Below, piece after piece: positions 862-20,907 of a DNA stretch of 50,608 bases. Both the position numbers and the translations under genes were made by a program. Every line of letters starts with the position of its first letter. The first letter of the stretch is position 1. The DNA is from a virus (lineage: Duplodnaviria; Heunggongvirae; Uroviricota; Caudoviricetes), in the IMG/VR virus record IMGVR_UViG_2667527522_000001. The stretch is one strand, 5' to 3'. Under the pieces are notes generated by a model, which did not search any database, was not told where the DNA came from, and saw nothing but the letters and a program-made list of their open reading frames with translations.

Positions 862-883
862 ATACTTAAAAAGGTGAAAAACT

Positions 884-1888: not shown

Positions 1889-1901
1889 CTTAGCGACAGA
1901 A

Positions 1902-2289: not shown

Positions 2290-2310
2290 CGTCTGGGCTA
2301 CCACCCATGA

Positions 2311-2352
2311 GCGTAGGAACTCCGGTGGTAGCGTTACCCGCTATCTGAAGGA
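2311..2352 (+). promoter_or_regulatory. seqC-like target box overlapping the Shine-Dalgarno of the first alpha-operon ORF
   Basis: GTAGGAAC...TCTGAAGGAGG; AGGAGG sits 10 nt before the ATG at 2363. Confidence 0.45.
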
Positions 2353-2362
2353 GGTTGCCATT

Positions 2363-2566
2363 ATGGCTACAGTCCCTGCTTTATCTCACCCTGAATTTAC
2401 CTTTGTCTTTCTGGCTGTCCGCCGTACAGACCGTGATGCCCGTCCACGCCCTGTGCGTGTAATCGCAGAATGCGAGCATGCTGCACGCCTTAAACTTGCC
2501 ACTGAATTTATCCTGAGCTTTGCTGCCCGTATCCCTGTGAAAAGAGCCGGGGAGGTGGTTGCATGA
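2363..2566 (+). CDS. Small hypothetical protein, first ORF after the immunity region
   Basis: 67-codon ORF with strong SD; the longer 1976-2566 frame upstream is probably not coding. Confidence 0.4.
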   Translation: MATVPALSHPEFTFVFLAVRRTDRDARPRPVRVIAECEHAARLKLATEFILSFAARIPVKRAGEVVA

Positions 2567-2799
2567 AATCCATGAATTTTAAGCAAGGCTGCATATTGAG
2601 TGAACAGGGGGAGAGTCGTCTGTTACGGGCGGCACTGGCCAGTGAGTTTCTTGCAGAGGTCTTGTCCGTGCCCACAGTGAATGGAGCGAGAACTGTTTCA
2701 GCGGAAGGCGCTGCGGCTTTAGTGGCCTGTATTGCCGAACAACTGGATGGCGTTGTTAAGGAAACCAGCACAATTAAGGGAGTGATGCGCGATGAATAA
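2563..2799 (+). CDS. Small hypothetical protein
   Basis: 78 aa; ATGA overlap with upstream ORF, translationally coupled. Confidence 0.45.
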   Translation: MKSMNFKQGCILSEQGESRLLRAALASEFLAEVLSVPTVNGARTVSAEGAAALVACIAEQLDGVVKETSTIKGVMRDE

Positions 2800-3202
2800 T
2801 AATCAAAATTTAAAGGCGCATGCTTTACGAACAGCAGTCTTACGCTACTACATTGCTGATGCATTCATTTCCTTAATGGTGCGTGTTCATAATGAACCTG
2901 TTTATATTGAAGATGGCGAACGAATAGAACTCTCCCACGAAAAAGTGGTGAGTAATATTATTTACCATATTGAAATGCCGTGGGTGAATGAGTTTGGGGC
3001 TGATGCTGGTTGCATACTGGCCGCAGAGAAACTGGAAAAAATGCTTAAACCAGGCTTTATGTCAGAAAATATTCGCCTGTCAGTTTTTGGTGTCACAGAG
3101 ATGCGTGAGGTTTACCGGGATATTATTTTCGGAGCACCTGATGGCGAACTACCCGAAGGTTTTGAATTTGTGAAGCCGGAAGGTCAGGAGGTGCTGCTGT
3201 GA
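2792..3202 (+). CDS. Hypothetical protein
   Basis: 136 aa; stop overlaps the primase GTG start. Confidence 0.5.
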   Translation: MNNNQNLKAHALRTAVLRYYIADAFISLMVRVHNEPVYIEDGERIELSHEKVVSNIIYHIEMPWVNEFGADAGCILAAEKLEKMLKPGFMSENIRLSVFGVTEMREVYRDIIFGAPDGELPEGFEFVKPEGQEVLL

Positions 3203-5886
3203 AAACACCGTCTGTATCCACGATTTCCGGAGCTGCAATTGGGCGCTGGCCTTATATCCTGTCAGCATTAGGTATTAAAGTACCGTCCGCAGGACATCAT
3301 GGGGCTTGCCCTGCCTGTGGTGGAAAAGATCGTTTTCGACTGGACGATAAAGCGGGGCGAGGGACGTGGTTTTGTAATCAGTGCGGTCATGGCGATGGTC
3401 TTGATCTGGTTCGTCTGGTGACAGGAAGAAAGATAAAAGAAGTCGCCGGGATGGTATCTGAGGCGCTTGCATTACCAGAAATACAGGAGAAGCCCGCATT
3501 GCCAGCCAGGAAAAAGGCCGCAGGAAAAGAAGCGGGCGCGGAGCGATATACCAGACTCAGACAGCAGTCCTGCAATGGTGAGCCGGTCTATCTGACAAAT
3601 AAGAGCTTACACGGGTATTCACTTCCCTTGCTGTCACAGCCTTTGAATCTGGCCGGAATAACATTTTCCACCGGTTCATTACTGCTGCCTTTGACGGATA
3701 TTTCCGGGAATATTACTGGTGGCCAGCTTATCAATCCTGACGGGGATAAAAGTCTGCTGCCCGGTAGCCAGCTGTCTGGCGCATTCATTGCCCTGACCGA
3801 TATACCCGCTGAAACACCTGAACAGGTGATTATCACTGAGGGTTTTGCCACGGCGCTTACCGTCAGTCTGCTGACTGAAGGATGGATCGTGGCGGCTGTC
3901 GCTGCCACCAATTTACTGAAGGTGACGGAGCAGATCCGAAAACGCTGGCCGGAAACCCGGATCATTCTGGCCGGAGATAATGATCTGGCTGACGGCAAAG
4001 AAAACACCGGGCGTATTCAGGCAGAGAAAGCCGCCAAAGCGGTGGATGGCTGGGTAACGCTCCCTCCGGTACGCCATAAGGCTGACTGGGATGATTATCG
4101 GCAGGAAGTGGGGAAAGAACGGGCGAGAGATGCCTTTCGTGAAGAAATGACGCTGCATGGCAAAGGGCAGACCCGTTTACCAGAAGGGTTCCGGCTGACA
4201 AAAGAATATTTGTGGTACGACAAGCTGGTTAATAAGTCTGATGGTGATACAGAGATACGTAATATCAAAATTTGCAGTCCGTTGCGGGTGACGGCAATCA
4301 CCAGTGATGCTGATGGAAGTAATTACGGGCGTTTGCTGGAATGGGAAGATACCAACGGAAACAGCCGTAAATGGGCAATGCCGATGGAGATGCTGGGCGG
4401 TAGCGGGGAAGAACTGCGCCGCGTTCTGCTGGTTAACGGGCTTTCTTACATCAACATTAACGGCATGGCCAGAGCATTCCTGATGGAATATATCTCGCTG
4501 TGTAAACCGGACAGAAAAGTAACCTGTGTGAATAAAACTGGCTGGCACGGCGGGGTTTACGTTCTCCAGGATGAAGTGATAGGGCGCGAAGCCCAGTCAG
4601 TCATCTTACAAACATCGAGTGTGCAGGGGCGTGATTTTCGTGTCAGCGGCACATCAGAGGGCTGGCGTGAAAATATAGGCCGTTATTGCATAAAGAATGC
4701 CCGTCTTGCCTTTGCGGTGAGTCTGGCATTTGCTGCCCCCCTTCTGAAACTGGTTGGTATCGGCGGTGGAGGTTATCACCTCAAAGGGGAATCCACAGAC
4801 GGTAAAACCACGACGATGAAAGTGGCTGCATCAGTATGTGGTGGAACAGATTTCTGGCATACGTGGCGGGCGACGGGGAATGCCTTAGAAGGAACGGCGA
4901 GCCGCCGCAATGATGCCACGCTGATGCTGGATGAAATCCGGGAGGTTGACGGCAGGGAGGCGGGAAATATCGCTTATATGCTGGCTAACGGGCAGGGCAA
5001 AGCCAGAGCCAGAACAGATGGTTCGGTAAGGGAAACCAACCGCTGGAATCTGTTGTTTCTGTCTACCGGGGAACTGTCACTGGTAGAGCATGCGGCAAGC
5101 GCCGGGGAACGTACGTATGCCGGGGTTGAGGTCAGAATGATCCAGATCCCAAGCGATTCGGGCAAGTATGGCGTGTTTGAAGAACTTCATGGCTTCAGTA
5201 GCGGGAAAACCCTGGCTGAGCATCTTGAGCAGCACGTAGCGCATTATCATGGTGCACCATTCCGCGACTGGCTGTATTGCCTGACCGCTGATCTGCCGGA
5301 ACTGACCAGTCAGGCGAAAGCCTTATTGAAAGAGTATACCCGAAGGCTGACGCCGGAAAATGCCGGGAATCAGGTTGGCCGGGCTGTTACCCGTTTTGCT
5401 CTGGTTGCGATGGCCGGGGAGCTGGCCACAAAAGCGGGCATCACAGGATGGCCGGAGGGAGAGGCCTTTCGTGCCGCTCAAAGCTGTCTGGCTGCATGGA
5501 TGGCTGACCGGGGCCATACAGCTAATCAGGAAGATAAAGCGGCACTTGAACAGGTTCGGGACTTCATGACGCGTAATCAGTTCAGTCGGTTTGCTGACTG
5601 GAATGACGACAGGAACCGGCCTGTTTCAATGATGGGATTCAGAAAAGTCGATAAAGGAGACAACGTGACAGAGCCGGTTGTGACGTTCTACGTTCTCCCG
5701 TCAGGCTGGAAGGAGATCTGTAAGGGATTTGACTCGCGTAAGGTGGCCAGGTTGTGTGTGGACGCGGGCTGGCTGAAACCCGGTGAAGATGGCCGGACGC
5801 AAAACAGCATTCGCCTGCCAGAAATAGGGCTTAAACGTGTGTACCAGTTCAATACACAGGTACTGGGAAGCGCTGAACCTGAGTGA
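3199..5886 (+). CDS. P4 alpha-type primase/helicase
   Basis: 895 aa; N-terminal CPACGG...CNQCGHGDG zinc-binding motif; long central and C-terminal region; GTG start with AGGAGG SD. Confidence 0.88.
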   Translation: MKTPSVSTISGAAIGRWPYILSALGIKVPSAGHHGACPACGGKDRFRLDDKAGRGTWFCNQCGHGDGLDLVRLVTGRKIKEVAGMVSEALALPEIQEKPALPARKKAAGKEAGAERYTRLRQQSCNGEPVYLTNKSLHGYSLPLLSQPLNLAGITFSTGSLLLPLTDISGNITGGQLINPDGDKSLLPGSQLSGAFIALTDIPAETPEQVIITEGFATALTVSLLTEGWIVAAVAATNLLKVTEQIRKRWPETRIILAGDNDLADGKENTGRIQAEKAAKAVDGWVTLPPVRHKADWDDYRQEVGKERARDAFREEMTLHGKGQTRLPEGFRLTKEYLWYDKLVNKSDGDTEIRNIKICSPLRVTAITSDADGSNYGRLLEWEDTNGNSRKWAMPMEMLGGSGEELRRVLLVNGLSYININGMARAFLMEYISLCKPDRKVTCVNKTGWHGGVYVLQDEVIGREAQSVILQTSSVQGRDFRVSGTSEGWRENIGRYCIKNARLAFAVSLAFAAPLLKLVGIGGGGYHLKGESTDGKTTTMKVAASVCGGTDFWHTWRATGNALEGTASRRNDATLMLDEIREVDGREAGNIAYMLANGQGKARARTDGSVRETNRWNLLFLSTGELSLVEHAASAGERTYAGVEVRMIQIPSDSGKYGVFEELHGFSSGKTLAEHLEQHVAHYHGAPFRDWLYCLTADLPELTSQAKALLKEYTRRLTPENAGNQVGRAVTRFALVAMAGELATKAGITGWPEGEAFRAAQSCLAAWMADRGHTANQEDKAALEQVRDFMTRNQFSRFADWNDDRNRPVSMMGFRKVDKGDNVTEPVVTFYVLPSGWKEICKGFDSRKVARLCVDAGWLKPGEDGRTQNSIRLPEIGLKRVYQFNTQVLGSAEPE

Positions 5887-5912
5887 TTATCGCGTGAGTC
5901 TTATTTTTATGA

Positions 5913-6103
5913 GGTAACACTGGTAACAGAGGTAACACCCGTTACTGATGCGGTTCTTCAGTGTTACCAGTCAAAAATACTGACTGGTAACAGAGGTAAC
6001 AAAAAATGGTGTGTTACCACGCGTTACCTCTTGATTTTGCTAACTGGTAACAGATTAAATCCTTTTAAATCAATAGCGTTACACGTGTTACCAGTGTTAC
6101 ACG
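5913..6103. repeat. Iteron cluster, candidate replication origin or cis replication region
   Basis: At least 6 direct GGTAACA and 4 inverted TGTTACC copies in about 190 bp directly after the primase gene. Confidence 0.55.
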
Positions 6104-6168
6104 TTCAGAACAAGAGGTAGGGATCCAAATCCCTTCTTCTGGCGGGCAACAGTATAGGGCACAGAACG

Positions 6169-6441
6169 ATGAAGATGATGAGAATGTACTGCCCCACATG
6201 TCAGGCAGTAGCACGGATAGGTAAAACAAACAGGAAACACCCACAACTGTACGATGTGTACTGCTATTGCTCTAATGTGGAGTGCGGTCACTCGTTTGTG
6301 ATGAATGTTGCTTTCTCCCATTCCGTTAGTCCAAGCGCGCTGAACGGGCAGGGAAGGGTTAAAGAGCTGATTGATGCAATTCCACCCGAGGAACGGGAAA
6401 AGGCTTTAAAGTTGCTGCTGGCTGCGCAAAAGAATGGGTAA
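6169..6441 (+). CDS. Ogr/Delta-family zinc-finger late activator
   Basis: YCPTCQ...(22 aa)...CSNVEC cysteine spacing as in P2 Ogr. Confidence 0.65.
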   Translation: MKMMRMYCPTCQAVARIGKTNRKHPQLYDVYCYCSNVECGHSFVMNVAFSHSVSPSALNGQGRVKELIDAIPPEEREKALKLLLAAQKNG

Positions 6442-7120
6442 AGTATGCGTCGGGAATGGCCGATCTGTTCCCGGAACCTGAACACAGGATTTCAGTTTAT
6501 ACGGTCATAAAATTATTATTTTTCAACTGGTTATCTTCTTCATGTTTCACAAACCTTCATAAAATCACACACCTAAAATTAATTATCCATTTAATATCAT
6601 AGAGTTGCGTATTCAGGCCATAGATTCGACGGACAGTAAAACTGAAAAAAAATGAATTTCTTTTCATTCTTTTCAGTTCCTGTATCGCAGTACATCTCGA
6701 GGACTGGCACGGACTGGCGGTATCGTTTGTAAAAAATCCAGGCTGAAAATTTTTAGTGATATGAAAACCGCAGGCGGGTGCGGTGTAGTGCCGTTTTGGT
6801 CTGTCGAGCGTATATTTTCCTTTTTCACGATTGCTGCATATCAAAACGAATGTGCAGATATCAGGCCGTGTCAAACCGTGAATCGTGGAGCCTAAATGCC
6901 CAAACTACGTTTGTAGACCTAGCTAGGGGAAGGTTTCCACATATACTGCTACCTATCTTCCAGTCGCTGGTGAGGATCAAGGTAAGCTAACTGGTGAACA
7001 AGAAAAGTACTTTCGTATCTTGCGTACTCGTTTTTTTTGATTAGTATGTACAGGTAGTAACTGGATGGTGAGAATTCGTCATAACTTATCAAATTGCATG
7101 ATGTTTATAGAGTATGAGTA

Positions 7121-8002
7121 ATGAGTCATAATAAAAAGGAATATGCTAAATTTTTCCGTCGCCCCATTTTTTCATCCTTAGCAAAAGGTAAGGATATTTC
7201 GGATTTATTTGGGAGTTTTGATTCTTACTGCTATGAAACACTGTTTTCAAACAATGATAATAATGAACATGAGATTTCACTAAGGGATTTATTTACATCA
7301 TTATATGATTTTTTGCGTCTGAATTATAGAAATGAATATGTTTATAAGACAGCACTTGTCAATAAAATAATATTCGGTAAGCACAGCCCAAAAACAAGTT
7401 CGTCGTCCATAGAGTTACCAATTAAAAACTCTATAGTGGATGTTGCGGTGTTTAATGGTACGTCTACAGCTTACGAGATTAAGACAGAGTATGATTCACC
7501 AAAAAGGTTGATTACTCAAGCCCCTGATTATTTGGATGTTTTTGATAAAGTGTATATAGTTACACATCCAGAGTATGCAAGTAAATATTGTGCTTTAAAT
7601 CTCCCCAGAGTGGGAGTTATGGTTTTGAATAAAAAAGATCAATTGAGTGTCATTAAGGAGGCAGATTCAAATATTGATTATATTAAAAGTGACAGCTTGT
7701 TTTCAGTTCTTAGAAAGGAAGAGTTCTTAGCTATAATAGAAGATTACACTTCAACTAAAATAAATATGCCTAACGGATTGGTTTATGAATATTGTAAAGA
7801 GATATTCATGCAGATGCCATTAAACATAGCAAATAAATACTTTATCTCTGCTATGAAAAAAAGATGTAACGATAAAGTTTTTTTGGATTATATTTATTCT
7901 CTTCCAGCATGTTTACGTGTTTTAGGTTATGCAACACCATTATCAAGAAAGCAAAAAGAATTCATCATGAATTTGATGGATGTAAAAATTAAAATTTGTT
8001 GA
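7121..8002 (+). CDS. Hypothetical protein, gene A of an AT-rich accessory cassette; possible PD-(D/E)xK-like nuclease motif
   Basis: 293 aa; markedly AT-rich versus flanks; IVDVAVF...AYEIK resembles a D...ExK signature. Confidence 0.65.
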   Translation: MSHNKKEYAKFFRRPIFSSLAKGKDISDLFGSFDSYCYETLFSNNDNNEHEISLRDLFTSLYDFLRLNYRNEYVYKTALVNKIIFGKHSPKTSSSSIELPIKNSIVDVAVFNGTSTAYEIKTEYDSPKRLITQAPDYLDVFDKVYIVTHPEYASKYCALNLPRVGVMVLNKKDQLSVIKEADSNIDYIKSDSLFSVLRKEEFLAIIEDYTSTKINMPNGLVYEYCKEIFMQMPLNIANKYFISAMKKRCNDKVFLDYIYSLPACLRVLGYATPLSRKQKEFIMNLMDVKIKIC

Positions 8003-8466
8003 TATCCTCAGGAGTTGTAAGTTATGTATAGCCCATATTTGTATGCGAGAAGTACAGAGTTATTATGCCTTAGGGACCTCGTTGCGAAGGGAGTTAGCCT
8101 AAATGGTCTGCTACCAATTTTAGAACCAATTAACGTCAATACGAGAAATTTATTAACATGTTTAAATGTTTGGAATTCTGACATAATTGTTATCCTTAAT
8201 CCTTATCAGGAAGATTTTTCTTCACACAATAACGTCTTAACTTTAAATCAAAATTTATCAAGTGTATTAACAAATAAAAATAATATCATCTCTGGATATC
8301 TTATTCAGCCCAATACAACGATTAATGATATTAATAATTGGTTGAATGCTAACTTAAATAGACGAGTTGCACTTCTATATGATAATCCATCATTATCCAA
8401 CTCTGATATTCGGTAATGGTGCCAACTTACTGATTTAGTGTATGATGGTGTTTTTGAGGTGCTCCC

Positions 8467-8742
8467 GTGGCTTCCATCTCCATCAGTTGTCCCTCCTGCT
8501 CAGCTACTGAAGGCGTGGTGCGTAACGGTAAAAGTACTGCCGGACATCAGCGCTATCTCTGCTCTCACTGCCGTAAAACATGGCAACTGCAGTTCACTTA
8601 CACCGCTTCTCAACCCGGTACACACCAGAAAATCATTGATATGGCCATGAATGGTGTTGGATGCCGGGCAACCGCCCGCATTATGGGCGTTGGCCTCAAC
8701 ACGATTTTACGTCACTTAAAAAACTCAGGCCGCAGTCGGTAA
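8467..8742 (+). CDS. insA: IS1 InsA
   Basis: [42 protein letters not shown] matches IS1 InsA. Confidence 0.9.
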
Positions 8743-9164
8743 CCTCGCGCATACAGCCGGGCAGTGATGTGATTGTCTGCGCTGAAATGGACGAACAGTG
8801 GGGCTACGTCGGTGCTAAATCACGTCAGCGCTGGCTGTTTTACGCGTATGACAGGATACGGAGGACGGTTGTGGCGCACGTCTTCGGTGAACGCACTCTG
8901 GCCACACTGGAGCGTCTTCTGAGCCTGCTGTCGGCCTTTGAGGTCGTGGTATGGATGACGGATGGCTGGCCGCTGTATGAATCCCGCCTGAAGGGAAAGC
9001 TGCACGTAATCAGCAAGCGTTACACTCAGCGCATTGAGCGACATAACCTGAATCTGAGACAACATCTGGCAAGGCTGGGACGGAAGTCACTGTCGTTCTC
9101 AAAATCGGTGGAGCTGCATGACAAAGTCATCGGGCATTATCTGAACATAAAACACTATCAGTAA
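8661..9164 (+). CDS. insB: IS1 InsB frame (transposase InsAB' by -1 frameshift)
   Basis: IS1 InsB sequence; slippery AAAAAAC at about 8718. Confidence 0.85.
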
Positions 9165-9729
9165 GTTGGAGTCATTACCTGATATTCAGTTGTTGGCGAC
9201 AAATCAATTGATTAGTTATCATGTTGTTTTAAATAATAAAATGCTTCCTAATCAGTGCGCTCTTCTTCCTTTGTCGAAGTTAATTATTATTAGCGATAAC
9301 TTTAGAAAGTTAGCAAAAAATGCTGATTATAATGGGCCGGAACTTTTCACGCACGCACATCAATTCGTGGGACAAAATTACTTAGGATTTGGCGATTATA
9401 CAATTACTGGCCAGGTACTAGATCTTGGAGGTGGTCAACCTTCTGCTGTTGCCGCACATTTGGTGTTCAAGAATTTACAAGCGAATACAGTTTGGATTCG
9501 TCATTTTGTATCAAGCAACACGCAACGAGGAAGTTCAAATGTTACTGCAAAATTTTTAGATGTTTCAGATCAAATTACAAATCTTGTTCCCCAACATCCA
9601 ACCCAGTTTGGCAGCAACATTGGTCTTAACTATTATTATTACAATAGTCAACCAACTGTAAGGCATTTCCCTGGGTTGCCAAAAAACAAACAGTATCAAA
9701 TTACTCACCATATTTGTTTCATGCTGGAT

Positions 9730-10953
9730 TTAATAGCAGGTCGTATTTAATAAGCTAGCGTACCATTCCATCATTACTTGTCGATCTTTAATATATTGCG
9801 CATGATTGTAAGTACCTCGAATAGAGTTCTTATCAACATGCGCAAGCTGCATTTCAATCCAGGCACTTTCAAACCCATGCTCATGCAAGATGGTGCTCAT
9901 GGTATGCCTGAAACCGTGACCCGTTAACCGACCGTGATAACCCAGTAGTTTTATCACTTTGTTGATGCTGGCTTCGCTCATTGGTTTACTGACGTCATTC
10001 CGGCCAGGGAAAACGAGGCTGTAATTCCCTGTTATTTCTTGCAGCTTTTTCAGGATATTGATCGCCTGAGTTGATAACGGAACCAGATGGGGGCGGCGTT
10101 TCTTCATCCGTTCTTTGGGGATCTCCCATAAGGCATTATCTAAATCAAACTCAGCCCATTCCGCTGCACGTAGTTCAATTGTTCGCACGCCTGTTAGCAT
10201 CAACAGCTGCGTGGCGTATTTGGTAACTAAACTGCCCTGATAGTTATCCAGAGCATTAACGAACTCGGGCAACTCGCTTTCAGTCAGGAACGGGAAGTGT
10301 TGGGTTTTAGGTTTGTTGAGTGCGATAGCTAAATCGGGTGCAAAATTATACTTTGCTCTACCAGTGGCAACAGCATAACGAAGCACTTCACCACAGCGGC
10401 GGCGGATCTTACTGGTTTGCTCTAGCGCACCTCTTTTCTCTATTTTTTGCAGGACGGTTAGCAGTTCTAATGGTTCAATCTGCTCAATTGGGCGCTGGCC
10501 GATAAAAGGAAAAATATCCTTTTCCATACAATTGAGAACCTCTTTTGCATAACCCTCTGACCAGGTGGCTTTTTTCGATGAGTGCCATTCTCTGGCCACA
10601 GACTCAAAGCTGTTCTCATGCGCGAACTGCAAAGCAATCTTATCTGCTTTTCTGGCTTCACTTGGGTTTATCCCGTTGGCTAACATCGAACGCGCTTCAT
10701 CACGTTTGGTACGTGCCTGTGCCAACGACACATCGCCATATACGCCAAAGGAAATCATCTTAGGCTTACCTGCAAAGCGATAGCGAAAACGCCAGCCTTT
10801 ACTGCCCGCTGTGTCGATCAGGAGTGATAGCCCCATACCATCGTTAAGCGTATAGGGTTTGTCCTTCGGTTTTGCTCTTTTTATTTGGATGTCAGATAGC
10901 AGCATGTGTATAGAAAAAAGATCGAACTCAGTTATACACAATGTTATACGCAA
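9730..10953 (-). CDS. int: Tyrosine integrase, P4 type
   Basis: 407 aa; N-terminal KRAKPKDKPYTLNDGMGLSLLI arm-binding type; C-terminal GHGFRHT...LAHVD...RGTYNHAQY catalytic region. Confidence 0.9.
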   Translation of the reverse strand: MRITLCITEFDLFSIHMLLSDIQIKRAKPKDKPYTLNDGMGLSLLIDTAGSKGWRFRYRFAGKPKMISFGVYGDVSLAQARTKRDEARSMLANGINPSEARKADKIALQFAHENSFESVAREWHSSKKATWSEGYAKEVLNCMEKDIFPFIGQRPIEQIEPLELLTVLQKIEKRGALEQTSKIRRRCGEVLRYAVATGRAKYNFAPDLAIALNKPKTQHFPFLTESELPEFVNALDNYQGSLVTKYATQLLMLTGVRTIELRAAEWAEFDLDNALWEIPKERMKKRRPHLVPLSTQAINILKKLQEITGNYSLVFPGRNDVSKPMSEASINKVIKLLGYHGRLTGHGFRHTMSTILHEHGFESAWIEMQLAHVDKNSIRGTYNHAQYIKDRQVMMEWYASLLNTTCY

Positions 10954-11075
10954 AGATGTATAGATTCCATTAGAAATAATGGTACTTTGCTGGACGAGTA
11001 TAAGGAGATGATATCAGTTAAAACAGTGAGTTATGGAATTAATTGAACTTAGTGAGAAGTGTTCATGGTGTCCCC

Positions 11076-11090
11076 TGCAGACATCTACTT
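11076..11090 (-). other. 15-nt match to the 3' terminus of tRNA-Arg (argW-like); att core candidate
   Basis: Minus strand reads CTGCAGGGGACACCA, preceded by non-tRNA sequence. Confidence 0.5.
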
Positions 11091-11153
11091 GAAGCGGCAG
11101 GGGATTGATTAGAATGGTATTTTTTAGATGTGAGAAATATTTTACCCGCTATT

Positions 11154-11354
11154 TTACCCATTGGCGCGGCTTAAGAGCTTATTTTTGAATTCACAATGGT
11201 CACGATATAACCATCTTGCTCGCCCGTGGATAACTTTGGCTTTTGGCAGGTCGCCGGACTTAATCCGGTCATAGATGAAGGTTTTACCGAAGCCAGTATC
11301 GGCCATGATGAATTTCAAATCAACCAGTGAATCAGGCTGTAGTTCGTGTTGCAT
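11154..11354 (-). CDS. alpA: AlpA-family DNA-binding protein (excisionase or regulator)
   Basis: 66 aa; LKFIMADTGFGKTFIYDRIKSGDLPKAKVIHGRARW resembles AlpA/Vis. Confidence 0.8.
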   Translation of the reverse strand: MQHELQPDSLVDLKFIMADTGFGKTFIYDRIKSGDLPKAKVIHGRARWLYRDHCEFKNKLLSRANG

Positions 11355-11364
11355 GAGTGCTATC

Positions 11365-11380
11365 TCCGAATAGGGAATCG
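11365..11380 (-). other. 16-nt match to the T-arm region of tRNA-Arg (argW-like); att core candidate
   Basis: Minus strand reads TTGCAGGTTCGATTCC, 19 nt upstream of the alpA start. Confidence 0.5.
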
Positions 11381-11390
11381 AACCTGCAAA

Positions 11391-11410
11391 TCAGGTAATA
11401 AAAAACCGCC
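11391..11410 (-). terminator. Rho-independent terminator ending the prophage leftward early operon
   Basis: Minus strand CCGCC-TGAT-GGCGG followed by TTTTTT. Confidence 0.5.
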
Positions 11411-11667
11411 ATCAGGCGGCTTGGTGTTCTTTCAGTTCTTCAATTCGAATATTGGTTATGTCTGCATGCGCTATCTGCGCCCATAGCATCCAGTGGTCAT
11501 AGCAGTCATTGATGTTCTCTGCTTCGATAACTCTGTTGAATGGCTCTCCATTCCATTCACCTGTGACTCGAAAGTGCATTTATCATCTCCATAAAACAAA
11601 ACCCGCCGTAGCGAGTTCAGATAAAAGAAATCCCCGCGAGTGCGAGGATAGTTACTTGTTCATATTA

Positions 11668-11967
11668 TTAATCGTCAATGTATTTTGAGCATTGTGGGCA
11701 ATCATCAATCCCACAATACGATTCATATGCATCCTTTATTGCGTCGCGGGCTTCAGTAAGAGTATTGAATAAGTTGCAGCTATTATCTTTTTGATATAGG
11801 TAAGTTCCTAATTTATAAGCAGAAGAAGCATCATTTCCGCTGTCTAAAATTACATCGTTATGGATTCTGCACCTTGCAAGAACTCCTGATCCCATAAGGG
11901 TCTGCATAGCCCATTGCTCTTGATCTTCACACAAATCATGAATGCTCATTTCAACACCTCTCTTCAC
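11668..11967 (-). CDS. Hypothetical early-left protein
   Basis: 99-codon ORF. Confidence 0.45.
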   Translation of the reverse strand: MKRGVEMSIHDLCEDQEQWAMQTLMGSGVLARCRIHNDVILDSGNDASSAYKLGTYLYQKDNSCNLFNTLTEARDAIKDAYESYCGIDDCPQCSKYIDD

Positions 11968-12063
11968 GTTTCACACACGTTAAGATTAACAGTGTTTTTA
12001 CATGCTTTGGAAGATTTATTTTATAAAAACTCTTTTAATACAAATAGATATAATAGTTCACTA

Positions 12064-12765
12064 TTATAGCTCCTTTAATCGAGGCGGTTCTGGTAGAGGC
12101 ATCCAGTGGGTTACCTCTTTGAGATACAGGTCTTCGCCATCACCGTCATCCCAAGTTGGATTGCCATCATTAAACCAGTCGACATATACGCCGACCTGAG
12201 TGTTGGGGATGTTTGGTGGGTAGTTGTTTTTAAAGTCAGCTGCTAACACATAGCATTGTCGCTCTCCCATTTCTGGCATTCGCTCACTACAGCTTATCCA
12301 ACCATCCGGAGTTACCGGATAGTTGCCGGGTTCTTTAATGTGCAAGCGAGGCTCACCATCTTTTGGCTCAGGCCACTGGCGCTCCATGTTGATCTTCAAT
12401 TTATCTTCCATAGCAGCGGTAATTTCAGCATCGCTGATGCCAGCACGGCGCTGTGCATCCCACAACAGAAACTGCATATCAGCCCACTCGCTAAGATCGT
12501 CTGGTTCGGCTGCGGCTTCAAGTGCCTCTTTTGAGAGATGTTTCAGCGGACCAATGGGGCCAACGCAGCCAAATGTGGAGTCAGACCATTTGGCATGCTC
12601 GTGGCGAATCTGTTCGCGTTCCAGTGATGCCAGTGCAATTCGTGCCAGTTCCATTTGTTCGCCACGAGTAAGTCCGTTATCAAGCGGATTTTTAATGAAT
12701 AATTTGATACGTTCTTTGGTTATAGCGCTCATATCACTCTCCTTTGATGCGAATGCCTGTTGCAA
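12064..12765 (-). CDS. Hypothetical early protein with DGNPTW...W C-terminal motif
   Basis: 233-codon ORF; probable start at MSAITKERIK. Confidence 0.55.
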   Translation of the reverse strand: MQQAFASKESDMSAITKERIKLFIKNPLDNGLTRGEQMELARIALASLEREQIRHEHAKWSDSTFGCVGPIGPLKHLSKEALEAAAEPDDLSEWADMQFLLWDAQRRAGISDAEITAAMEDKLKINMERQWPEPKDGEPRLHIKEPGNYPVTPDGWISCSERMPEMGERQCYVLAADFKNNYPPNIPNTQVGVYVDWFNDGNPTWDDGDGEDLYLKEVTHWMPLPEPPRLKEL

Positions 12766-13168
12766 TGCTGTTTATGATGCTGTCAGTGCATGGGGTAGAA
12801 AGCTGGGCATCTCCAGCAATTCTCATGACCTCAACATCTGCATATCGAATACCGAGGTGTATCAGACCGGCTATACCTGACTTAAGCCGAGCATTTTCCA
12901 TAAACAGATCCTTTGCCCGCTGTTTTTCTGCCTCAAGCTCAACGCGCAACTTCCCTACCGTTAACGCAATATCCTCGTTCTCTTGGTCGCGGCGTTTGAT
13001 GTATTGCTGGTTTCTTTCCCGTTCATCCAGTAGTGCAAGCACGGTAGCCGGATTAGCCCTGGCAACAAAATCCCGGACTGGCTTACAACCAATCTCCGCA
13101 ATGGGTTGATACGATGTGTAGCCATGCTGTCTTGTATAACTACCGTGACGAATAACGAAAAAAATCAC
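12734..13168 (-). CDS. Hypothetical early-left protein, possibly Ead/Ea22-like
   Basis: 144 aa; PATVLALLDERE segment and coiled-coil stretch. Confidence 0.45.
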   Translation of the reverse strand: MIFFVIRHGSYTRQHGYTSYQPIAEIGCKPVRDFVARANPATVLALLDERERNQQYIKRRDQENEDIALTVGKLRVELEAEKQRAKDLFMENARLKSGIAGLIHLGIRYADVEVMRIAGDAQLSTPCTDSIINSIATGIRIKGE

Positions 13169-13253
13169 CGTTTATTTTTTTTTAGCTTGCCACTTATCTT
13201 TACCGGCTTTCACTGCCGCCTCACGCAGTGCCTGATAGTCAATCTTGCTCACT

Positions 13254-13418
13254 GCTTGCCTCCTTTGCGCCACATAGCATTCAGATATTTGTTTTGATTT
13301 ACTGACGGAAAAGAATTTCTCTTAAGCAATTCCTCTCTCGATGGCATTGGCTTTACGCGTTGGCGAATAATCATTTCTGCCGGAAGAATGCCGGGATTGT
13401 ATGCAAGTCCTCTCATGA
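13254..13418 (-). CDS. Small ORF, possibly CIII-like
   Basis: 54-codon [15 protein letters not shown]...[10 protein letters not shown] not in the track; weak resemblance only. Confidence 0.25.
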
Positions 13419-13721
13419 TTTACTCTCCACGAGCTGGTCAATAGCCATGCTAAGTGACACACCTAAAGTCTCGATATGCTGCTGAATATCCTGTAGCGTC
13501 TGCGCCTGAGATAACAGGATTTCACGGTTGCATAACTCTTTAACCAGATGCTCAAACTTGCTGTAATAACCGATACGACTTAGTGTTTCTTTCCCTGCAT
13601 TCTCGCCTTCTTTAATAATTCCTCTTTCGCTAAGAATCAGATCGTGTTTGGTTCCGGTAATAACGTATTTTCCGAGGTCGATGTTTAGCTTCATTGTTTT
13701 CATTGTTAATTCCTCAGTCAT
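13413..13721 (-). CDS. Hypothetical early protein
   Basis: ORF 13413-13853, trimmed to an internal Met after the upstream stop. Confidence 0.4.
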
Positions 13722-14007
13722 TACTGATAGCGCCATAGCGTGAGCGGTAATTACGCAGGCGCGGGTCAATTTCAGGGAAGTGGGTATATGTGGCTTTGCG
13801 TAATGGGCGGATTGATGTCTGGTAAATTCGCTCGCGTTCTTCTTTCTCTGCAAGCCATATACAATGGCGAAATTCCTTTTCCTCTTTCGTTTCCTGCGGT
13901 AGAGACATTATCAGGTCGTAGTTTTTCCTGAATTTATCCAGCACCTCCGATACGGAATTGCCGGAACAGCGGCGCGGGTCATCCGCACCATACAGAGGCG
14001 CTGGCAT
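13714..14007 (-). CDS. Hypothetical early protein
   Basis: 97-codon ORF. Confidence 0.45.
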   Translation of the reverse strand: MPAPLYGADDPRRCSGNSVSEVLDKFRKNYDLIMSLPQETKEEKEFRHCIWLAEKEERERIYQTSIRPLRKATYTHFPEIDPRLRNYRSRYGAISND

Positions 14008-14030
14008 AATGGAATCCTTATTTTGCTAAT

Positions 14031-14414
14031 CTAGAAGGGGATTGAATCGTCGTATTCAGGATGATTTTGATGATTGCTACTTTGCTGCTGTTGGCTGTTT
14101 CCTGAAGTTGCAAATCCAATCTTTGCATTCAGTAATTCAAGAGTGATTGATTGACCATTTTGCCCCTGATAAACATCAACCCTGATGTTTTCTCCGGTAA
14201 TTTCCACAATGCCACCTTCAACAAGAACACTACGGTAGTAATCCGCTTGCGCTCCCGGCTTGGCAAATACAACGGCGCTGTAGTTTGTCCATTCTTTCTT
14301 TTTTGTCTGGCGATCGTAATACTGAACGCCAGCACGGATGTTGAATCCGATATTTTCCCCGGCCTGAAACTCTCTTGCGGGCTTGTTTAGTCTTACAGTA
14401 ATCGAATGTGCCAT
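14031..14414 (-). CDS. ssb: Single-stranded DNA-binding protein
   Basis: C-terminal acidic tail ...EYDDSIPF typical of SSB; start at MAHSITVRLNKP. Confidence 0.8.
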   Translation of the reverse strand: MAHSITVRLNKPAREFQAGENIGFNIRAGVQYYDRQTKKKEWTNYSAVVFAKPGAQADYYRSVLVEGGIVEITGENIRVDVYQGQNGQSITLELLNAKIGFATSGNSQQQQSSNHQNHPEYDDSIPF

Positions 14415-15019
14415 TAAGCAGCAGCTCCTTCTAATTCGTCTCGTCTGATGTTGTAAACGTCCTGCGCTTTGTGCTGCTCCGGTGTTCCTTCGAGCATCTT
14501 CCACGCTTTGGCGAACGCCTGTTTAAGCTCTTCCACGGTGTTTTTCTGCAATGCTGCGTCAGTGAATGCTTTTAGAACCTGTTCAGGTGTAGGTGATGGT
14601 TTTGATTGCTTTGCTGCTGCGTTCTGCTGATGTTTATGCTCGTCGGTATCTGCATCTTTCGCATCATCAATGCCGAACAAACCATTGAGGCAATACTTGC
14701 GTGCATAAGAGCTTGTAGCTCCAGTAACTTGTGCAGAATCCATTCCTTTCTTGCTTTCTTCCTCTCGTGCAAGAGCGGTTGCCGTATGACTGTTTTCGCC
14801 ATCGGTAATAGTTGCCGTTGCTTTCACGTAATACCGATCACCAATCAACACAACTTCATCGCTGATTGATAAAAACAGGCCATTCAGTAACGGCTTAACG
14901 CCTTCAAGAATATCTTCGCAGCTTCTGTATTTATATTTGCCGAATGAGTTGTACTGATTCTTTGGCGCGTTCAGATTCTCCTGAATAGCTGCCAGTCTTG
15001 CGTAAAATTCTTTGCTCAT
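14414..15019 (-). CDS. erf: Erf-family single-strand annealing protein
   Basis: MSKEFYARLAAIQENLNAPKNQYNSFGKYKYRSCEDILEGVKPLL close to P22 Erf. Confidence 0.85.
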   Translation of the reverse strand: MSKEFYARLAAIQENLNAPKNQYNSFGKYKYRSCEDILEGVKPLLNGLFLSISDEVVLIGDRYYVKATATITDGENSHTATALAREEESKKGMDSAQVTGATSSYARKYCLNGLFGIDDAKDADTDEHKHQQNAAAKQSKPSPTPEQVLKAFTDAALQKNTVEELKQAFAKAWKMLEGTPEQHKAQDVYNIRRDELEGAAA

Positions 15020-15108
15020 ATGTTTGTTCTCAGAATGGACATGGCCCAAGGAAATAACGCTGATTTAATACTTCAGTCTTTGCCGCATTTAAAAATACGC
15101 GAACACCT

Positions 15109-15294
15109 TCACGATCTCCCTTCTGGCGATACATTAACGCCTGCTGCGTGTACATGCGTCTCTGTAACTTGCTCTCCTTCACTGTGGTTGCAAGTGACAT
15201 GAATATCTCCTTCGTTACCGATTAATTCTTTCATCTGACGAATGAATTCTTCGTCTGACCAGCTATCTGTAAAACTCATTTCCTGCGATACCAC
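15109..15294 (-). CDS. Small hypothetical protein
   Basis: 61-codon ORF. Confidence 0.3.
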   Translation of the reverse strand: MVSQEMSFTDSWSDEEFIRQMKELIGNEGDIHVTCNHSEGEQVTETHVHAAGVNVSPEGRS

Positions 15295-15568
15295 GGAATG
15301 TTGATCGCTGATTTCATCGCTTTATTTGCTTCAAGCCACATTTTGGAATCACCAATAAATCTTGCTATTACTGCTTTGTTTTGTGCTGCACGAAGCATCT
15401 GGTGATTGATGGCTATTTCATTGCGCATAATAAGACCTCAACTCTTTTCCATCCGTCACGTAATTTACGGGTGATTCGTTCAAGTAAAGATTCATTTAGT
15501 TGGAAGGCACCCATGCGAGCGCCTCCCGCGATTGCGTAAATCATGGGTGGTTCCTTATGTTGGTTTTA

Positions 15569-16537
15569 TTAGTAGGTTATTTTTGTTGCGAATACTTCGC
15601 CTTTTACGATGGCTGTTATGATATTTTTAGCAACATCTTCTGATGCGCCAACCTTGATAAGGTCAGCAAGTATTTTGTTATTTACTTCTTTCCGGTGAGC
15701 TTTATCCTTTGCTCTACGCTCTTCTTCTTCCTTGATTCTTTTTTCTTCTGCTATTCTGGCTTGCTCTTTTGCTTCAGCCTCGCGCCTGATTCGTTCAGCC
15801 TCCTCCTGTGCTTTTCGGCGTTCTGCTTCAATTGCCGCCTGCTTTTCTCTTTCAGCTCGTTCTGCTGCCTCTTTTGCTTCGCGCTGTGCTCGTTGCTCGG
15901 CTTCAATGCGTTCACGCTCTGCACGTTCCGCTGCGGCCTTAGCTTCTGCTTCTCGCCTTGCTGCTGCTTCAATTTCGGCTTTTGCCTTTGCTTCGGCTTC
16001 TGCTCTGGCTTTCTCTTCAGCTTCTCTTTTTAAGCGTTCTTCATGCTCTCGCTTTTCCTGCTCCGCTTTGAGTCTTGCCTCTTCTCTTTGGCGGTCAAAT
16101 TCGCGATCCATCAAAATCGCTATTTCATGGTCAGACTCAATTTGCTTTGCGAGAGCTTCAGCTGCTGCCTTAGCTTCTTCTTCGGCTTTAATCCGCGCCT
16201 GTTCTTCCTCATAATCAGTAAGAGGCTGGCGTGCCTTGGCTTTCGGCTCATCAAGGCGATCACGCACTGTCTTGCGGTTAGCATCAATGAGCTTTGGAAT
16301 TTCCTTCAGTTCAGCAACAAGGTCTTTGCCAAGACCATCGAGATATGTTTTCGTCTGCGCAACTTTATACGCCAGAGAAGCGATCTCCTTTCTGCCCTTT
16401 GCCGTTGTGATATCAGGCACAAAGGACATAACTTCACGTTCAACCTTTTGAAGGATTTCTTCAATCTGGTCGGCAGACTGAAATACAGTCATTGCATTTG
16501 ATTTTTCAATAACAACTAAATCTGTTACTTCACTCAT
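15569..16537 (-). CDS. Coiled-coil protein rich in E/A/K/R repeats
   Basis: 322 aa; long EAEAKA / ERAERE low-complexity stretch. Confidence 0.6.
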   Translation of the reverse strand: MSEVTDLVVIEKSNAMTVFQSADQIEEILQKVEREVMSFVPDITTAKGRKEIASLAYKVAQTKTYLDGLGKDLVAELKEIPKLIDANRKTVRDRLDEPKAKARQPLTDYEEEQARIKAEEEAKAAAEALAKQIESDHEIAILMDREFDRQREEARLKAEQEKREHEERLKREAEEKARAEAEAKAKAEIEAAARREAEAKAAAERAERERIEAEQRAQREAKEAAERAEREKQAAIEAERRKAQEEAERIRREAEAKEQARIAEEKRIKEEEERRAKDKAHRKEVNNKILADLIKVGASEDVAKNIITAIVKGEVFATKITY

Positions 16538-16571
16538 ATATCCTCCTTCGTTGTATTCTTTAAAAACGCTC

Positions 16572-16940
16572 TCAGGCGGCTTTGATAGTCATATCATCTG
16601 AATCAAATATTCCTGATGTATCGATATCGGTAATTCTTATTCCTTCGCTACCATCCATTGGAGGCCATCCTTCCTGACCATTTCCATCATTCCAGTCGAA
16701 CTCACACACAACACCATATGCATTTAAGTCGCTTGAAATTGCTATAAGCAGAGCATGTTGCGCCAGCATGATTAATACAGCATTTAATACAGAGCCGTGT
16801 TTTTTGAGTCTGTATTCAGAGTCTGACCAGAAATTATTAATCTGGTGAAGTTTTTCCTCTGTCATTACGTCATGGTCGATTTCAATTTCTATTGATGCTT
16901 TCCAGTCGTAATCAATGATGTATTTTTTGATGTTTGACAT
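16572..16940 (-). CDS. Hypothetical early protein (DGN...GW motif family)
   Basis: 122 aa; ends ...KAA like 17121-17444. Confidence 0.5.
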   Translation of the reverse strand: MSNIKKYIIDYDWKASIEIEIDHDVMTEEKLHQINNFWSDSEYRLKKHGSVLNAVLIMLAQHALLIAISSDLNAYGVVCEFDWNDGNGQEGWPPMDGSEGIRITDIDTSGIFDSDDMTIKAA

Positions 16941-17120
16941 CTGTTCATATCCTCATAGATAAAAAATTGCCCTCACACTGGAGGGCAAAGAAGATTTCCA
17001 ATAATCAGAACAAGTCGGCTCCTGTTTAGTTACGAGCGACATTGCTCCGTGTATTCACTCGTTGGAATGAATACACAGTGCAGTGTTTATTCTGTTGTTT
17101 ATGCCAAAAATAAAGGCCGA

Positions 17121-17444
17121 CTATGCGGCCTTATCCACATTCCTGAACCAAACGCAGATCGGACCGTCTTCTGTATCGTGAATCGAACCAACAAACCATC
17201 CTTCTCCATCTGGCATGCTTGGCTCCCATCCACTGATGTTTGGATTCCCATCTTCAAAATACGAGTCAATTACCGTTTGATTGTTGTCGTTTTCCATTTC
17301 AACAATTGATGATTCAATGCCATGCTGCTTGCAGAAAGATCTGAACTCATCAGCTGAAATTACCTCTCTATCCCCAAACAGGTTGGCGTATTCTGGGTGC
17401 GTCCAGTAGCCATCCTCGCTTCGCTCTACTACTAATGCTTCCAT
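17121..17444 (-). CDS. Hypothetical early protein (DGN...GW motif family)
   Basis: 107 aa; GNPNISGWEPSMPDGEGW motif. Confidence 0.5.
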   Translation of the reverse strand: MEALVVERSEDGYWTHPEYANLFGDREVISADEFRSFCKQHGIESSIVEMENDNNQTVIDSYFEDGNPNISGWEPSMPDGEGWFVGSIHDTEDGPICVWFRNVDKAA

Positions 17445-17452
17445 ATCTCACC

Positions 17453-17779
17453 TCAAATAAGTGGTTTGCTGCCTAATTTCATTTTCTGGCGACCAACACA
17501 AGTCACACCCATTTCACTGCGTGGCTTGCTGTACCATGTGCGCTGATTCTTGCGCTCAATACGTTGCAGGTTGCTTTCAATCTGTTCGTGGTATTCAGCC
17601 AGCACCGTAAGGTCTATCGGATTCAGTGCGCTTTCTACTCGTGATTTCGGTTTGCGATTCAGCGAGAGAATAGGGCGGTTAACTGGTTTTGCGCTTACCC
17701 CAACCAACAGGGGATTTGCTGCTTTCCATTGAGCCTGTTTCTCTGCGCGACGTTCGCGGCGGCGTGTTTGTGCATCCAT
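17453..17779 (-). CDS. N: Antitermination protein N (lambda type)
   Basis: MDAQTRRRERRAEKQAQWKAANPLLVGVSAKPVNRPIL... essentially lambda N. Confidence 0.9.
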   Translation of the reverse strand: MDAQTRRRERRAEKQAQWKAANPLLVGVSAKPVNRPILSLNRKPKSRVESALNPIDLTVLAEYHEQIESNLQRIERKNQRTWYSKPRSEMGVTCVGRQKMKLGSKPLI

Positions 17780-17946
17780 CTTGATTCTCCTGTCAGTTAG
17801 CTTTGAGTAACGCGCCGTGATGCTTATCTCCACGGTTGCTGTCTTGCAGCTGCATTTCGCGCTACTCAAAGCTTTCTGCTTTGAATGCTGCCCTTCTTCA
17901 GGGCTAAATTTTTAAGAGCCTCACCTTCAATGGTGGTTAGTGCGTC

Positions 17947-18013
17947 CTGCTGATGGCTTAAAATTACAAGAAAGATTGTATGCTGTAAACAAGAAATATT
18001 GTAAAAATGGGCG
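17947..18013. promoter_or_regulatory. OL operators (434 type) with PL region
   Basis: Three ACAA-N6-TTGT sites: ACAAGAAAGATTGT, ACAAGAAATATTGT, ACAAACTCCATTGT. Confidence 0.65.
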
Positions 18014-18083
18014 TGAAAAACAAACTCCATTGTTTTTAAACGGAAAATAGTTTGTTTTTTGGTTGTCGAAATCGAGGTGAGGA

Positions 18084-19436
<1,353 letters not shown>

Positions 19437-19555
19437 GACATTCCCGCTCTTACACATCCCAGCCCTGAAAAAGGGCATCAAATTAAACCACACCTATGGT
19501 GTATGCATTTATTTGCATACATTCAATCAATTGTTATCTAAGGAAATACTTACAT

Positions 19556-19834
19556 ATGCAACTTACAAGTACTCGCAAGAAAGCGAATGCAATTACAAGC
19601 AACATCCTGAATCGAATTGCTGTACGTGGTCAGCGAAAGGTTGCTGATGCATTAGGGATCAATGAATCGCTAATTTCGCGATGGAAAGACAGCTTTATCC
19701 CAAAAATGGGAATGCTTCTGGCTGTTCTTGAATGGGGTGTTGAAGACGAGGAATTGGCGGAACTGGCTAAGAAAGTAGCCAGAATGCTGACAAAAGAAAA
19801 AGCCCCGAAGAACGGCGAATTCTTCGAGGCCTGA
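19556..19834 (+). CDS. cII: CII-like transcriptional activator
   Basis: ...RIAVRGQRKVADALGINESLISRWKDSFIPKMGMLLAVLEWGV resembles lambda CII. Confidence 0.85.
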   Translation: MQLTSTRKKANAITSNILNRIAVRGQRKVADALGINESLISRWKDSFIPKMGMLLAVLEWGVEDEELAELAKKVARMLTKEKAPKNGEFFEA

Positions 19835-20016
19835 TGTAGAAAGACTGGATCAATCCACAGGAGTAATTATGACAAAACGTCGTAAGAAATACCAGGAAAA
19901 AGAAGAGATTCGACACCCTGATTCACCTGAGGGATTAGTGGTAGCCGCAGCAAATAACAGGGCGTTCGCAGAGCGCCTTGTTGGTGTTTACAGACTAGCC
20001 AAAGCAGGAGTGAAAC

Positions 20017-20907
20017 ATGGGCGTCGTTAAGTTAGCTGATTACAGGCATAACCCTGTACAACATCAGGAGGCATCCAGTATGGGGTATGTCTCTATACAC
20101 CGCCAGTTTATGGACAGCAGGCTCTATAAGGACTCTCAGGCAGTACATCTTTGGCTTCACTTAATCCTCAAGGCTAATCACGAATCTACTGTCGTCAATA
20201 CTGATATCGGTCCGATAACTGTTGATCGCGGTCAGATGATAACTGGACGCCCGTCGCTGGTCAGAGAAACATTCATCCCCGACAACAAAGTTAGGAGCTT
20301 ATTACGGACTTTTGAGTCGAAAGGGATGCTTAATATTTGCTCGATGGGGAAGAAATTTAGCCTGTTTACAATCGTTAAATATGACGATTTTCAGGCAAAA
20401 AATTGTCCAACGGTTGTCCAACGGTTGTCCAACGCAAACACCAGTAATGGCGCGGCTCTCAGCGGAGATTGTCCAACGGTTGTCCAACGGTTGTCCATAA
20501 ACAATAATATAAATAATATCTCTAATACTGACGTATTAGAGAGTGCCACAGCAGACAAAAAGTCTGACAAGAAAAAACCTTCCGTTAGCTGTCAGGATGT
20601 TGTCGATGCTTACCACGAAATCCTTCCTGAAGCGCCAAAAATCCGCGCACTGAATGACAAGCGTAAAAACCAGATCCGAACGTTCTGGCGCAAAGCCGGA
20701 GTGATAACCCGCCAGCTTGACGGGCATGGGTTCACGATGCAGGACTGGAGAAATTATTTGAGCTACGTAGGCGAAAATTGCCGATGGATGTTCGAAGAGC
20801 GTCCAAACCATCAACGCGGAACTGTCTGGCACAAAAAGGGATTTGATTTCCTGCTTAACGATAATACCTACCTGAAAGTTCGTGAGGGTGAACACGATGA
20901 CCGATAA
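20017..20907 (+). CDS. Replication initiator, O-like, with internal origin
   Basis: 296 aa; iteron array inside the coding region; next gene is a DnaB-type helicase. Confidence 0.65.
   Translation: MGVVKLADYRHNPVQHQEASSMGYVSIHRQFMDSRLYKDSQAVHLWLHLILKANHESTVVNTDIGPITVDRGQMITGRPSLVRETFIPDNKVRSLLRTFESKGMLNICSMGKKFSLFTIVKYDDFQAKNCPTVVQRLSNANTSNGAALSGDCPTVVQRLSINNNINNISNTDVLESATADKKSDKKKPSVSCQDVVDAYHEILPEAPKIRALNDKRKNQIRTFWRKAGVITRQLDGHGFTMQDWRNYLSYVGENCRWMFEERPNHQRGTVWHKKGFDFLLNDNTYLKVREGEHDDR
20401..20500. repeat. Origin iterons: two triplets of TTGTCCAACGG followed by an AT-rich stretch
   Basis: Six 11-bp direct repeats read directly; AT-rich segment downstream. Confidence 0.75.

Follow-up and report, generated by a model that had tools for sequence, protein, structure and literature searches.

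The recombination directionality factor (RDF) of KplE1 (CPS-53) is TorI, and the module to which it belongs is also found in HK620, Sf6 and CUS-3 (PMC2951348, PMC3509656). KplE1 is bordered by a duplicated 16-nt core, CTGCAGGGGACACCAT (PMC2951348); IntS, IHF and TorI carry out recombination between its argW and attR copies, and attL has five GTTCG-type sites to which TorI binds (PMC2951348, PMC3509656). The TorI sites are defined by the pentamers GTTCG, GTCCG and GATCG, and IntS arm-type sites with a TAAA motif have been mapped on attL as well (P' sites); control of excision in the module rests on expression of the RDF, the regulation of which is not understood (PMC2951348). In Kapi1 the att site is as in KplE1, with attP between xis and int (PMC8787464). 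The order in the free phages HK620 and Sf6 is torI - P arm - 16-nt core - P' arm - intS; since attP lies between torI and intS, the two genes come to stand at opposite ends of the prophage after integration (PMC2951348; PMC8787464).

The locus described here lies in a 50,608-nt stretch of DNA, referred to as the window. It has the defining arrangement of this module, with intS beside argW and attL, torI beside attR, and the core CTGCAGGGGACACCAT duplicated. Like KplE1 (argW-intS ... torI-pawZ) it has intS and torI at opposite ends, and it shares with KplE1 the same 16-nt core and the same torI (340 nt at 98% identity, including a 16-mer that resembles the T arm of argW); in the K-12 annotation the equivalent 15 nt at attR are the argW pseudogene fragment pawZ. 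KplE1 is, however, a 10-kb defective remnant with no satellite behind it; the prophage in the window has a P22-like genome of full length, and next to its attR, in place of the dsdC flank, stands a P4-like satellite. The P22-like, argW-integrating phages HK620, Sf6, Kapi1 and CUS-3 have the torI - attP - intS order, an identical core and the 16-mer upstream of torI in common with the window, while the rest of each genome is mosaic. Their records label the 16-mer in two ways: as a predicted pI promoter/cII site in HK620 and Sf6, as an att core in CUS-3.

The att core, torI, IntS and the tandem occupancy of argW are known biology, of which the window is one further instance. [quoted passage not shown]

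Two elements at one tRNA gene

No tRNA gene was found within the window by ARAGORN, so the comparison with argW took sequence from outside it: argW and the outer att copies were read from a near-identical genome other than the window's own source. Positions 10900-11600 of the window are 100% identical to three complete E. coli genomes, including NZ_CP018953.1, which, an IS1 insertion excepted, is collinear with the remainder of the window (99.8-99.96%). There, argW (tRNA-Arg; L001 2143-2217, sequence GTCCTCTTAGTTAAATGGATATAACGAGCCCCTCCTAAGGGCTAATTGCAGGTTCGATTCCTGCAGGGGACACCA) and attL lie 162 nt beyond intS, and hence past the end of the window. Features of the window are collected in Table 1.

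Table 1. Features of the window around the shared att site and the extent of the two elements.
Feature	Position	Strand	Remarks
P4-like satellite	1..11064	.	left end outside the window, with ~750 nt and the attR core beyond position 1
Satellite integrase, 391 aa (RefSeq start)	9730..10905	-	45% identical to IntS
Satellite attL arm and int upstream region	10906..11064	-	holds GAGTTCGATC at 10920-10929
att core CTGCAGGGGACACCAT, 16 nt	11065..11080	-	argW 61-75 plus T; attR of phage and attL of satellite
P arm of phage attR	11081..11153	-	between torI stop codon and core; contiguous with core and intS in HK620/Sf6 attP
torI, 66 aa	11154..11354	-	excisionase / recombination directionality factor of the prophage
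T-arm-like 16-mer TTGCAGGTTCGATTCC	11374..11389	-	argW 46-61; ends 19 nt upstream of torI ATG
Intrinsic terminator, hairpin and T run	11403..11422	-	after the 55-aa ORF, directly upstream of the T-arm-like motif
55-aa ORF ("ORF55" of phage 434 and HK106)	11412..11579	-	common to lambdoid phages with other integration modules
P22-like (Lederbergvirus-type) prophage	11065..50608	-	attR to intS
intS, P4-family tyrosine integrase of prophage	49451..50608	-	window ends at the intS start codon

The right-hand element is marked as P22-like by a P22 portal protein, a P22 coat protein and a tailspike with a P22 head-binding domain. Its integrase had been called IntS-like in an earlier reading made from the window's sequence alone (the sequence-only reading), and it is indeed 99% identical to the Int of CUS-3; the tRNA gene beside it in the near-identical genome is argW, as that reading had also supposed. 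The left-hand element has the genes of a P4-like satellite: an integrase with Arm-DNA-bind_3, Phage_int_M and Phage_integrase domains, a primase with a zinc ribbon, Toprim and DUF927 (alpha-like), a P2-family capsid protein, and Ash/Icd-like and ogr/delta-like proteins. Inside it, Rfam models find isrK at 2063-2140 (68.9 bits) and the C4 antisense RNA at 2221-2308 (81.1 bits), a stretch corresponding to the P4-type immunity RNA region.

In the near-identical genome three copies of the core bracket the prophage and the satellite. One sits at argW's 3' end, with TTATCAG... and then intS behind it; the middle copy, AGATGT-core-GAACAC, lies between torI and the second integrase; and the third, ...CACATTC-core-TCTTGTG, which the sequence-only reading had proposed to look for to the left of position 1 and which is there, stands before dsdC. 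The three copies, together with both junction arms, bear out the proposal of that reading that two elements are integrated in tandem at one tRNA gene, argW. The middle copy, made up of CTGCAGGGGACACCA and the T that follows it, is a genuine hybrid site. It doubles as attR for the P22-like prophage and attL for the P4-like satellite, and is flanked by the P arm of the former and the arm of the latter. In the deposited phage genomes of HK620 and Sf6, attP reads AGATGT-core-TTATCAG, so that the sequence flanking the window's attR copy on the right meets the one flanking the attL copy on the left; this places strand exchange inside the core. The phage P arm contains two GGGTAAAA repeats that overlap the end of torI and match the TAAA-containing motif of IntS arm-type sites; on this resemblance they are candidate IntS sites. 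On the attL side, which lies outside the window (L001 2219-2378), a check for the presence of motifs found TorI-type sites (GTTCG, GTCCG, GATCG) and TAAA IntS arm sites, a set that fits the published description, overlapping the intS promoter (PMC2951348).

Matches to synthetic sites show how these sites are occupied among 5426 complete E. coli genomes. The empty attB, with argW running directly into the TCTTGTG/dsdC flank, was matched end to end in 937 of them, and the junction of argW with the satellite arm, indicating the satellite alone at argW, in 425; the tandem junction torI-core-satellite integrase was matched in 17 genomes. Excision of the phage, by recombination of the argW copy with the attR copy, would leave the satellite abutting argW, which is the arrangement seen in those 425 genomes, and the satellite integrase would be expected to recombine the middle core with the third copy before dsdC. 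Of the two, the satellite was probably there before the phage, which would have entered the argW-proximal copy, since it is this copy that keeps the tRNA side of attB; the flanks themselves are compatible with either order of arrival. Some genomes carry 40 nt of the satellite arm past the core (window 11025-11064) and have no satellite integrase; what they carry may be left over from a satellite or belong to another island whose arm begins alike.

As a tandem array at one tRNA gene the locus has the features usual for its class, with two related P4-family integrases, one core, three direct copies of it and a hybrid site in the middle; each element also occurs alone at the site, and nothing about the arrangement is unusual. 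A P4-like integrase likewise comes after a torI phage, in the order torI - core - P4-like integrase, in Hafnia (L172) and an Erwinia-like viral contig (L094). The presence of this order in other genera indicates that occupancy of argW by a phage together with a P4-like satellite is recurrent, and such tandem occupancy by a P22-like phage and a P4-like satellite can be regarded as ordinary.

Several further features of the two elements were observed. An IS1 copy at 8455-9178 (insA 8467-8742, insB 8661-9164) interrupts a satellite gene of the sce7725 family; it is missing from NZ_CP018953.1, of which ~50 nt are unaligned at the insertion point. Beyond the left end of the window, near the distal att site of the satellite, there is a run of ~20 GGCTG pentanucleotide repeats (L002 14228-14336), annotated in RefSeq as a 44-aa hypothetical protein. 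In the prophage, positions 26911-26969 hold a tRNA-like fragment with a perfect T-arm hairpin, GCCGGTTCGATTCCGGC (~26941-26957), in a non-coding stretch bounded by the ORF at 26186-26674 and the genes after it (the first ORF of at least 50 aa is at 27008). The fragment matches the tmRNA/tRNA clan below threshold (20.2 bits, E = 5e-6), and ARAGORN found no tRNA there; Kapi1 and similar related phages have tRNA genes at this place.

The argW-like sequence ahead of torI

The sequence-only reading had reported two strings on the minus strand matching argW. Each does occur there, once and with 0 mismatches, at coordinates that differ by ~10 nt from those it gave: TTGCAGGTTCGATTCC is at 11374-11389 rather than 11365-11380, and CTGCAGGGGACACCA at 11066-11080 rather than 11076-11090. 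Aligned with argW from NZ_CP018953.1, both are exact copies, and they meet at one point of the tRNA just as had been noticed, corresponding to argW positions 46-61 and 61-75 and abutting with a 1-nt overlap. An exact 16-mer match would be expected by chance ~2e-5 times in 2 x 50.6 kb, and shuffles allowing 2 mismatches gave a mean of 0.04 matches. The two pieces enclose a single gene, as described, over a gap of 293 bp where ~275 bp had been claimed. That gene had been taken for alpA and proves to be torI: torI is its RefSeq name, and its product matches PDB 1Z4H, "Tor inhibition protein", over the full length (E = 6.6e-43). With Pfam Phage_AlpA (PF05930) the product scores 12.7 bits against a gathering cut-off of 21 (E = 0.12), and an NCBIfam search with it gave no match. 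A label from the AlpA family (CP4-57 regulator) was rejected in view of the sub-threshold Pfam score, the exact match being TorI.

The 16-mer TTGCAGGTTCGATTCC lies between the intrinsic terminator and the torI ribosome-binding site. The deposited genomes of the free phages HK620 and Sf6, and KplE1 of K-12, have the identical sequence at the equivalent spot, and of 80 IMG/VR loci of the E. coli type, 75 have an exact copy. Among E. coli prophages the left mosaic boundary of the recombination module is at ~11404-11409, at the terminator. Homologues of torI in Proteus have another gene arrangement, in which the integrase is convergent and overlapping.

In the sequence-only reading the two fragments looked like nested or hybrid att sites from tandem integration; as att junctions, they would have a regulatory gene trapped between two half-sites. 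The abutment of the two pieces at argW position 61, and the fact that the locus truly is a tandem array, speak in favor of this, and for 11065-11080 the description as a hybrid site is correct. The T-arm piece is a different matter. Its terminator-side and torI-side flanks are contiguous in HK620, Sf6 and KplE1, so that both are phage DNA and not the two sides of a junction, and the enclosed gene torI is the phage's own. Recombination at the 16-mer would have produced a junction of the 5' part of argW, the 16-mer and torI, found in 0 of the 5426 complete E. coli genomes, compared with 937 containing the empty-site product of core-core recombination. In addition, attP outside E. coli already has a degenerate T-loop, TTCGATGTA, next to its core; the T-loop is therefore represented twice, and a simple split of one site is ruled out. 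The trapped-gene account is thus very improbable: 11374-11389 is not an att junction but a conserved part of the phage's own module.

The degenerate T-loop is itself a conserved feature: in the non-E. coli modules (L007, L091-L108, L160, L172), (A/G)(A/T)TTCGATGTA stands in the 12 nt left of the core, on attP's phage side and directly before TGCAGGGGACACCA, a degenerate repeat of the tRNA's T-loop next to the identity block. A history in which torI was inserted into a longer ancestral core was also considered and rejected, non-E. coli attP having the degenerate T-loop AATTCGATGTA by the core and so the T-loop twice.

A related question is posed by the CUS-3 record (GenBank CP000711; CP000711.1), in which the 16-mer is labelled attL core at 1-16 and attR core at 40192-40207, where the record ends. 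Taken at face value, this would make TTGCAGGTTCGATTCC the true att core of CUS-3-type phages, and it does form a perfect 16-bp direct repeat around almost the whole prophage. We consider this hardly credible. The Int of CUS-3 is the 99% identical counterpart of the window's IntS; the canonical core and P' arm follow directly after the "attL core" in CP000711; in IHE3034 (L171), with a 100% identical prophage end, torI and after it dsdC come next; and attP lies between torI and intS in phage-form genomes (PMC8787464). From the core and P' arm behind the "attL core", the IntS integrase and the continuation in IHE3034 it follows that the CUS-3 record stops before torI: it ends one gene short, at the wrong repeat, omitting torI and the real attR.

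Ends of other records fall close by. Many IMG/VR prophage contigs (e.g., L014, L015, L018 and L020) end exactly at the torI stop codon, which puts their predicted boundary inside attR, before the core. For annotation, the prophage should be taken to run from the core at 11065-11080 to the argW copy just past intS, with torI included, and the satellite to begin at the core at 11065-11080 too.

Conservation of the leader motif

The E. coli 16-mer is one version of a motif in the torI leader, CAGGTTCGATT(C/T)CC, which was followed through torI homologues gathered from phage records, IMG/VR and public assemblies. It reads TTGCAGGTTCGATTCC in E. coli, CAGGTTCGATTCCC in Erwinia phages (in one or two tandem copies) and Hafnia, CCAGGTTCGATTTCC in the L103 group, CTCAGTTCGATTTCC in L100 and L160, CTGTTCGATTCCC plus GCGTTCGATTACC in L098, and CCAGGTTCGATTCCTG in L095. 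In 12 aligned representative leaders, GTTCGATT with a C two bases further on (GTTCGATTnC) is, the ATG aside, the sole block without variation; Hafnia, whose TorI is 70% identical, has it too. The sequence flanking GTTCGATT is scrambled across lineages, and torI itself has diverged considerably: third codon positions have pairwise identities of 39-73% among lineages (one closely related pair left out), 13 of 66 (20%) are invariant across nine diverged lineages, and the longest invariant run in the coding sequence of these nine is 10 nt. Against this 20% invariance, eight consecutive invariant non-coding bases (~0.2^8 per position) are far beyond a near-neutral expectation. After GATTCC comes a C in the leaders of E. 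coli, Erwinia and Hafnia (GATTCCC) but a T in the tRNA (GATTCCT), and this shared non-tRNA base points to descent under constraint rather than repeated copying from the tRNA.

The motif is missing from Klebsiella phage Chronis and Erwinia phage Eho49, isolated phages that have the module, and from Cronobacter prophages and L096, and is therefore dispensable. The TGCAGGGGACACCA core is kept in almost every module found, from which the modules appear to target argW orthologues (argW itself was read in E. coli only). A literature search with the motif string returned tRNA probe sequences only, and the T-loop-like leader motif is undescribed in the literature searched; its only mentions in sequence records are as a predicted promoter, in HK620 and Sf6, and as a wrongly placed att core, in CUS-3. 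Upstream of K-12 alpA (CP4-57, target ssrA), a search for a T-loop mimic on the same strand found only GGTTCAC, on the opposite strand.

Motifs resembling GTTCGAT also occur just upstream of P4-like integrase starts in three genera: GAGTTCGATC in the window, recurring at the same spot in related satellites of other genera, GAGTTCGAAT in Hafnia (L172, ~3425-3436) and GGCTTCGATC in the Erwinia-like contig (L094). The integrase arm of another island (L011, L103) has GCTGGTTCGATTGTA. These motifs ahead of P4-like and island integrases may be RDF sites of the elements concerned.

Possible roles of the leader motif

GTTCG is the DNA of the universal T-psi-C loop, and within the leader motif this pentamer is present and invariant, usually in single copy. 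One possibility, to which we would give somewhat less than even odds, is that the motif is a protein-binding cis-element, read by TorI and/or IntS, which modulates torI expression and with it the excision switch. TorI is a candidate reader because the motif contains a published TorI pentamer, and the core-binding domain of IntS is another because the motif copies the tRNA side of attB; modules from outside E. coli keep TTCGAT at an equal distance from the core on attP's phage side, which suggests that this domain may read that sequence. A more specific form of the idea, in which the site copies the tRNA side of attB, is bound by TorI and/or the IntS core-binding domain and serves to tune the excisionase, is offered tentatively and is the more doubtful of the two. 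The comparison with the TorI sites I1-I5 on attL (PMC2951348) cuts both ways. The leader motif has GTTCG, and in L100 and L160 CAGTTCG, like I1 and I3. It differs in being single-copy, with an invariant ATT after the pentamer, and in lying upstream of torI, not at the intS promoter. A TorI operator has several GTTCG-type pentamers about one helical turn apart, to which TorI binds cooperatively. The five mapped sites, as read off attL with the published pentamers (PMC2951348), have C or T after GTTCG where the leader always has A, and their ~10-bp phasing is not seen in the leader, in which duplicated copies have a period of 16 nt (Erwinia phage) or 13 nt (L098). The phages lacking the motif (Chronis, Eho49, the Cronobacter prophages and L096) also weigh against such a role, and protein binding at the torI leader is not reported in the literature searched.

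Alternatively, the motif could be a functionless relic, of an older att site or of illegitimate recombination with argW, that survives because it is young. Its position at the left mosaic edge of the module, its dispensability in several phages and the lack of a demonstrated function are all in keeping with a relic; the invariance of GTTCGATT in the face of 39-73% third-position identity in torI and scrambled flanks, the shared non-tRNA base in GATTCCC in E. coli, Erwinia and Hafnia, and the failure to find any simple recombination history that would place a T-arm upstream of torI make it on balance unlikely, if still a serious competitor. The HK620 and Sf6 records imply something else, a cII (C1)-activated promoter, pI, for integrase expression at lysogenisation. 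A "phage integration" promoter and a cII site, TTGCCTGATTTGC, are placed over this stretch in the HK620 record, and the transcript would start past the torI Shine-Dalgarno sequence, recalling pI of lambda, which lies inside xis. In the cII/C1 sites of lambda and P22, though, the tetramers are spaced by N6, and here by N5; the first TTGC reads TTAC in the window and K-12, both tetramers are missing in Erwinia and Hafnia even though GTTCGATT is kept, a consensus scan of 10900-11700 found no sigma-70-like promoter, and the invariant block would sit in the promoter spacer, all of which leaves a pI promoter improbable. Action as RNA is more improbable still. If the upstream terminator were read through, the motif would be transcribed with torI, as a T-arm mimic or an anti-Shine-Dalgarno element in the 5' leader, and UUCC could pair with GGAG; RNAalifold on nine lineages, however, predicted 0 pairs, the 3' half of the T stem, which a T-arm hairpin would need, is missing, and Rfam has no match at the locus. 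The promoter and RNA readings fare worse than the guess of a TorI and/or IntS site.

More broadly, RDFs of the TorI family may have evolved to read the T-loop DNA of the target tRNA. The leader motif is a modest but testable lead on how excisionase expression is controlled in these phages, with a target of 10-16 nt.
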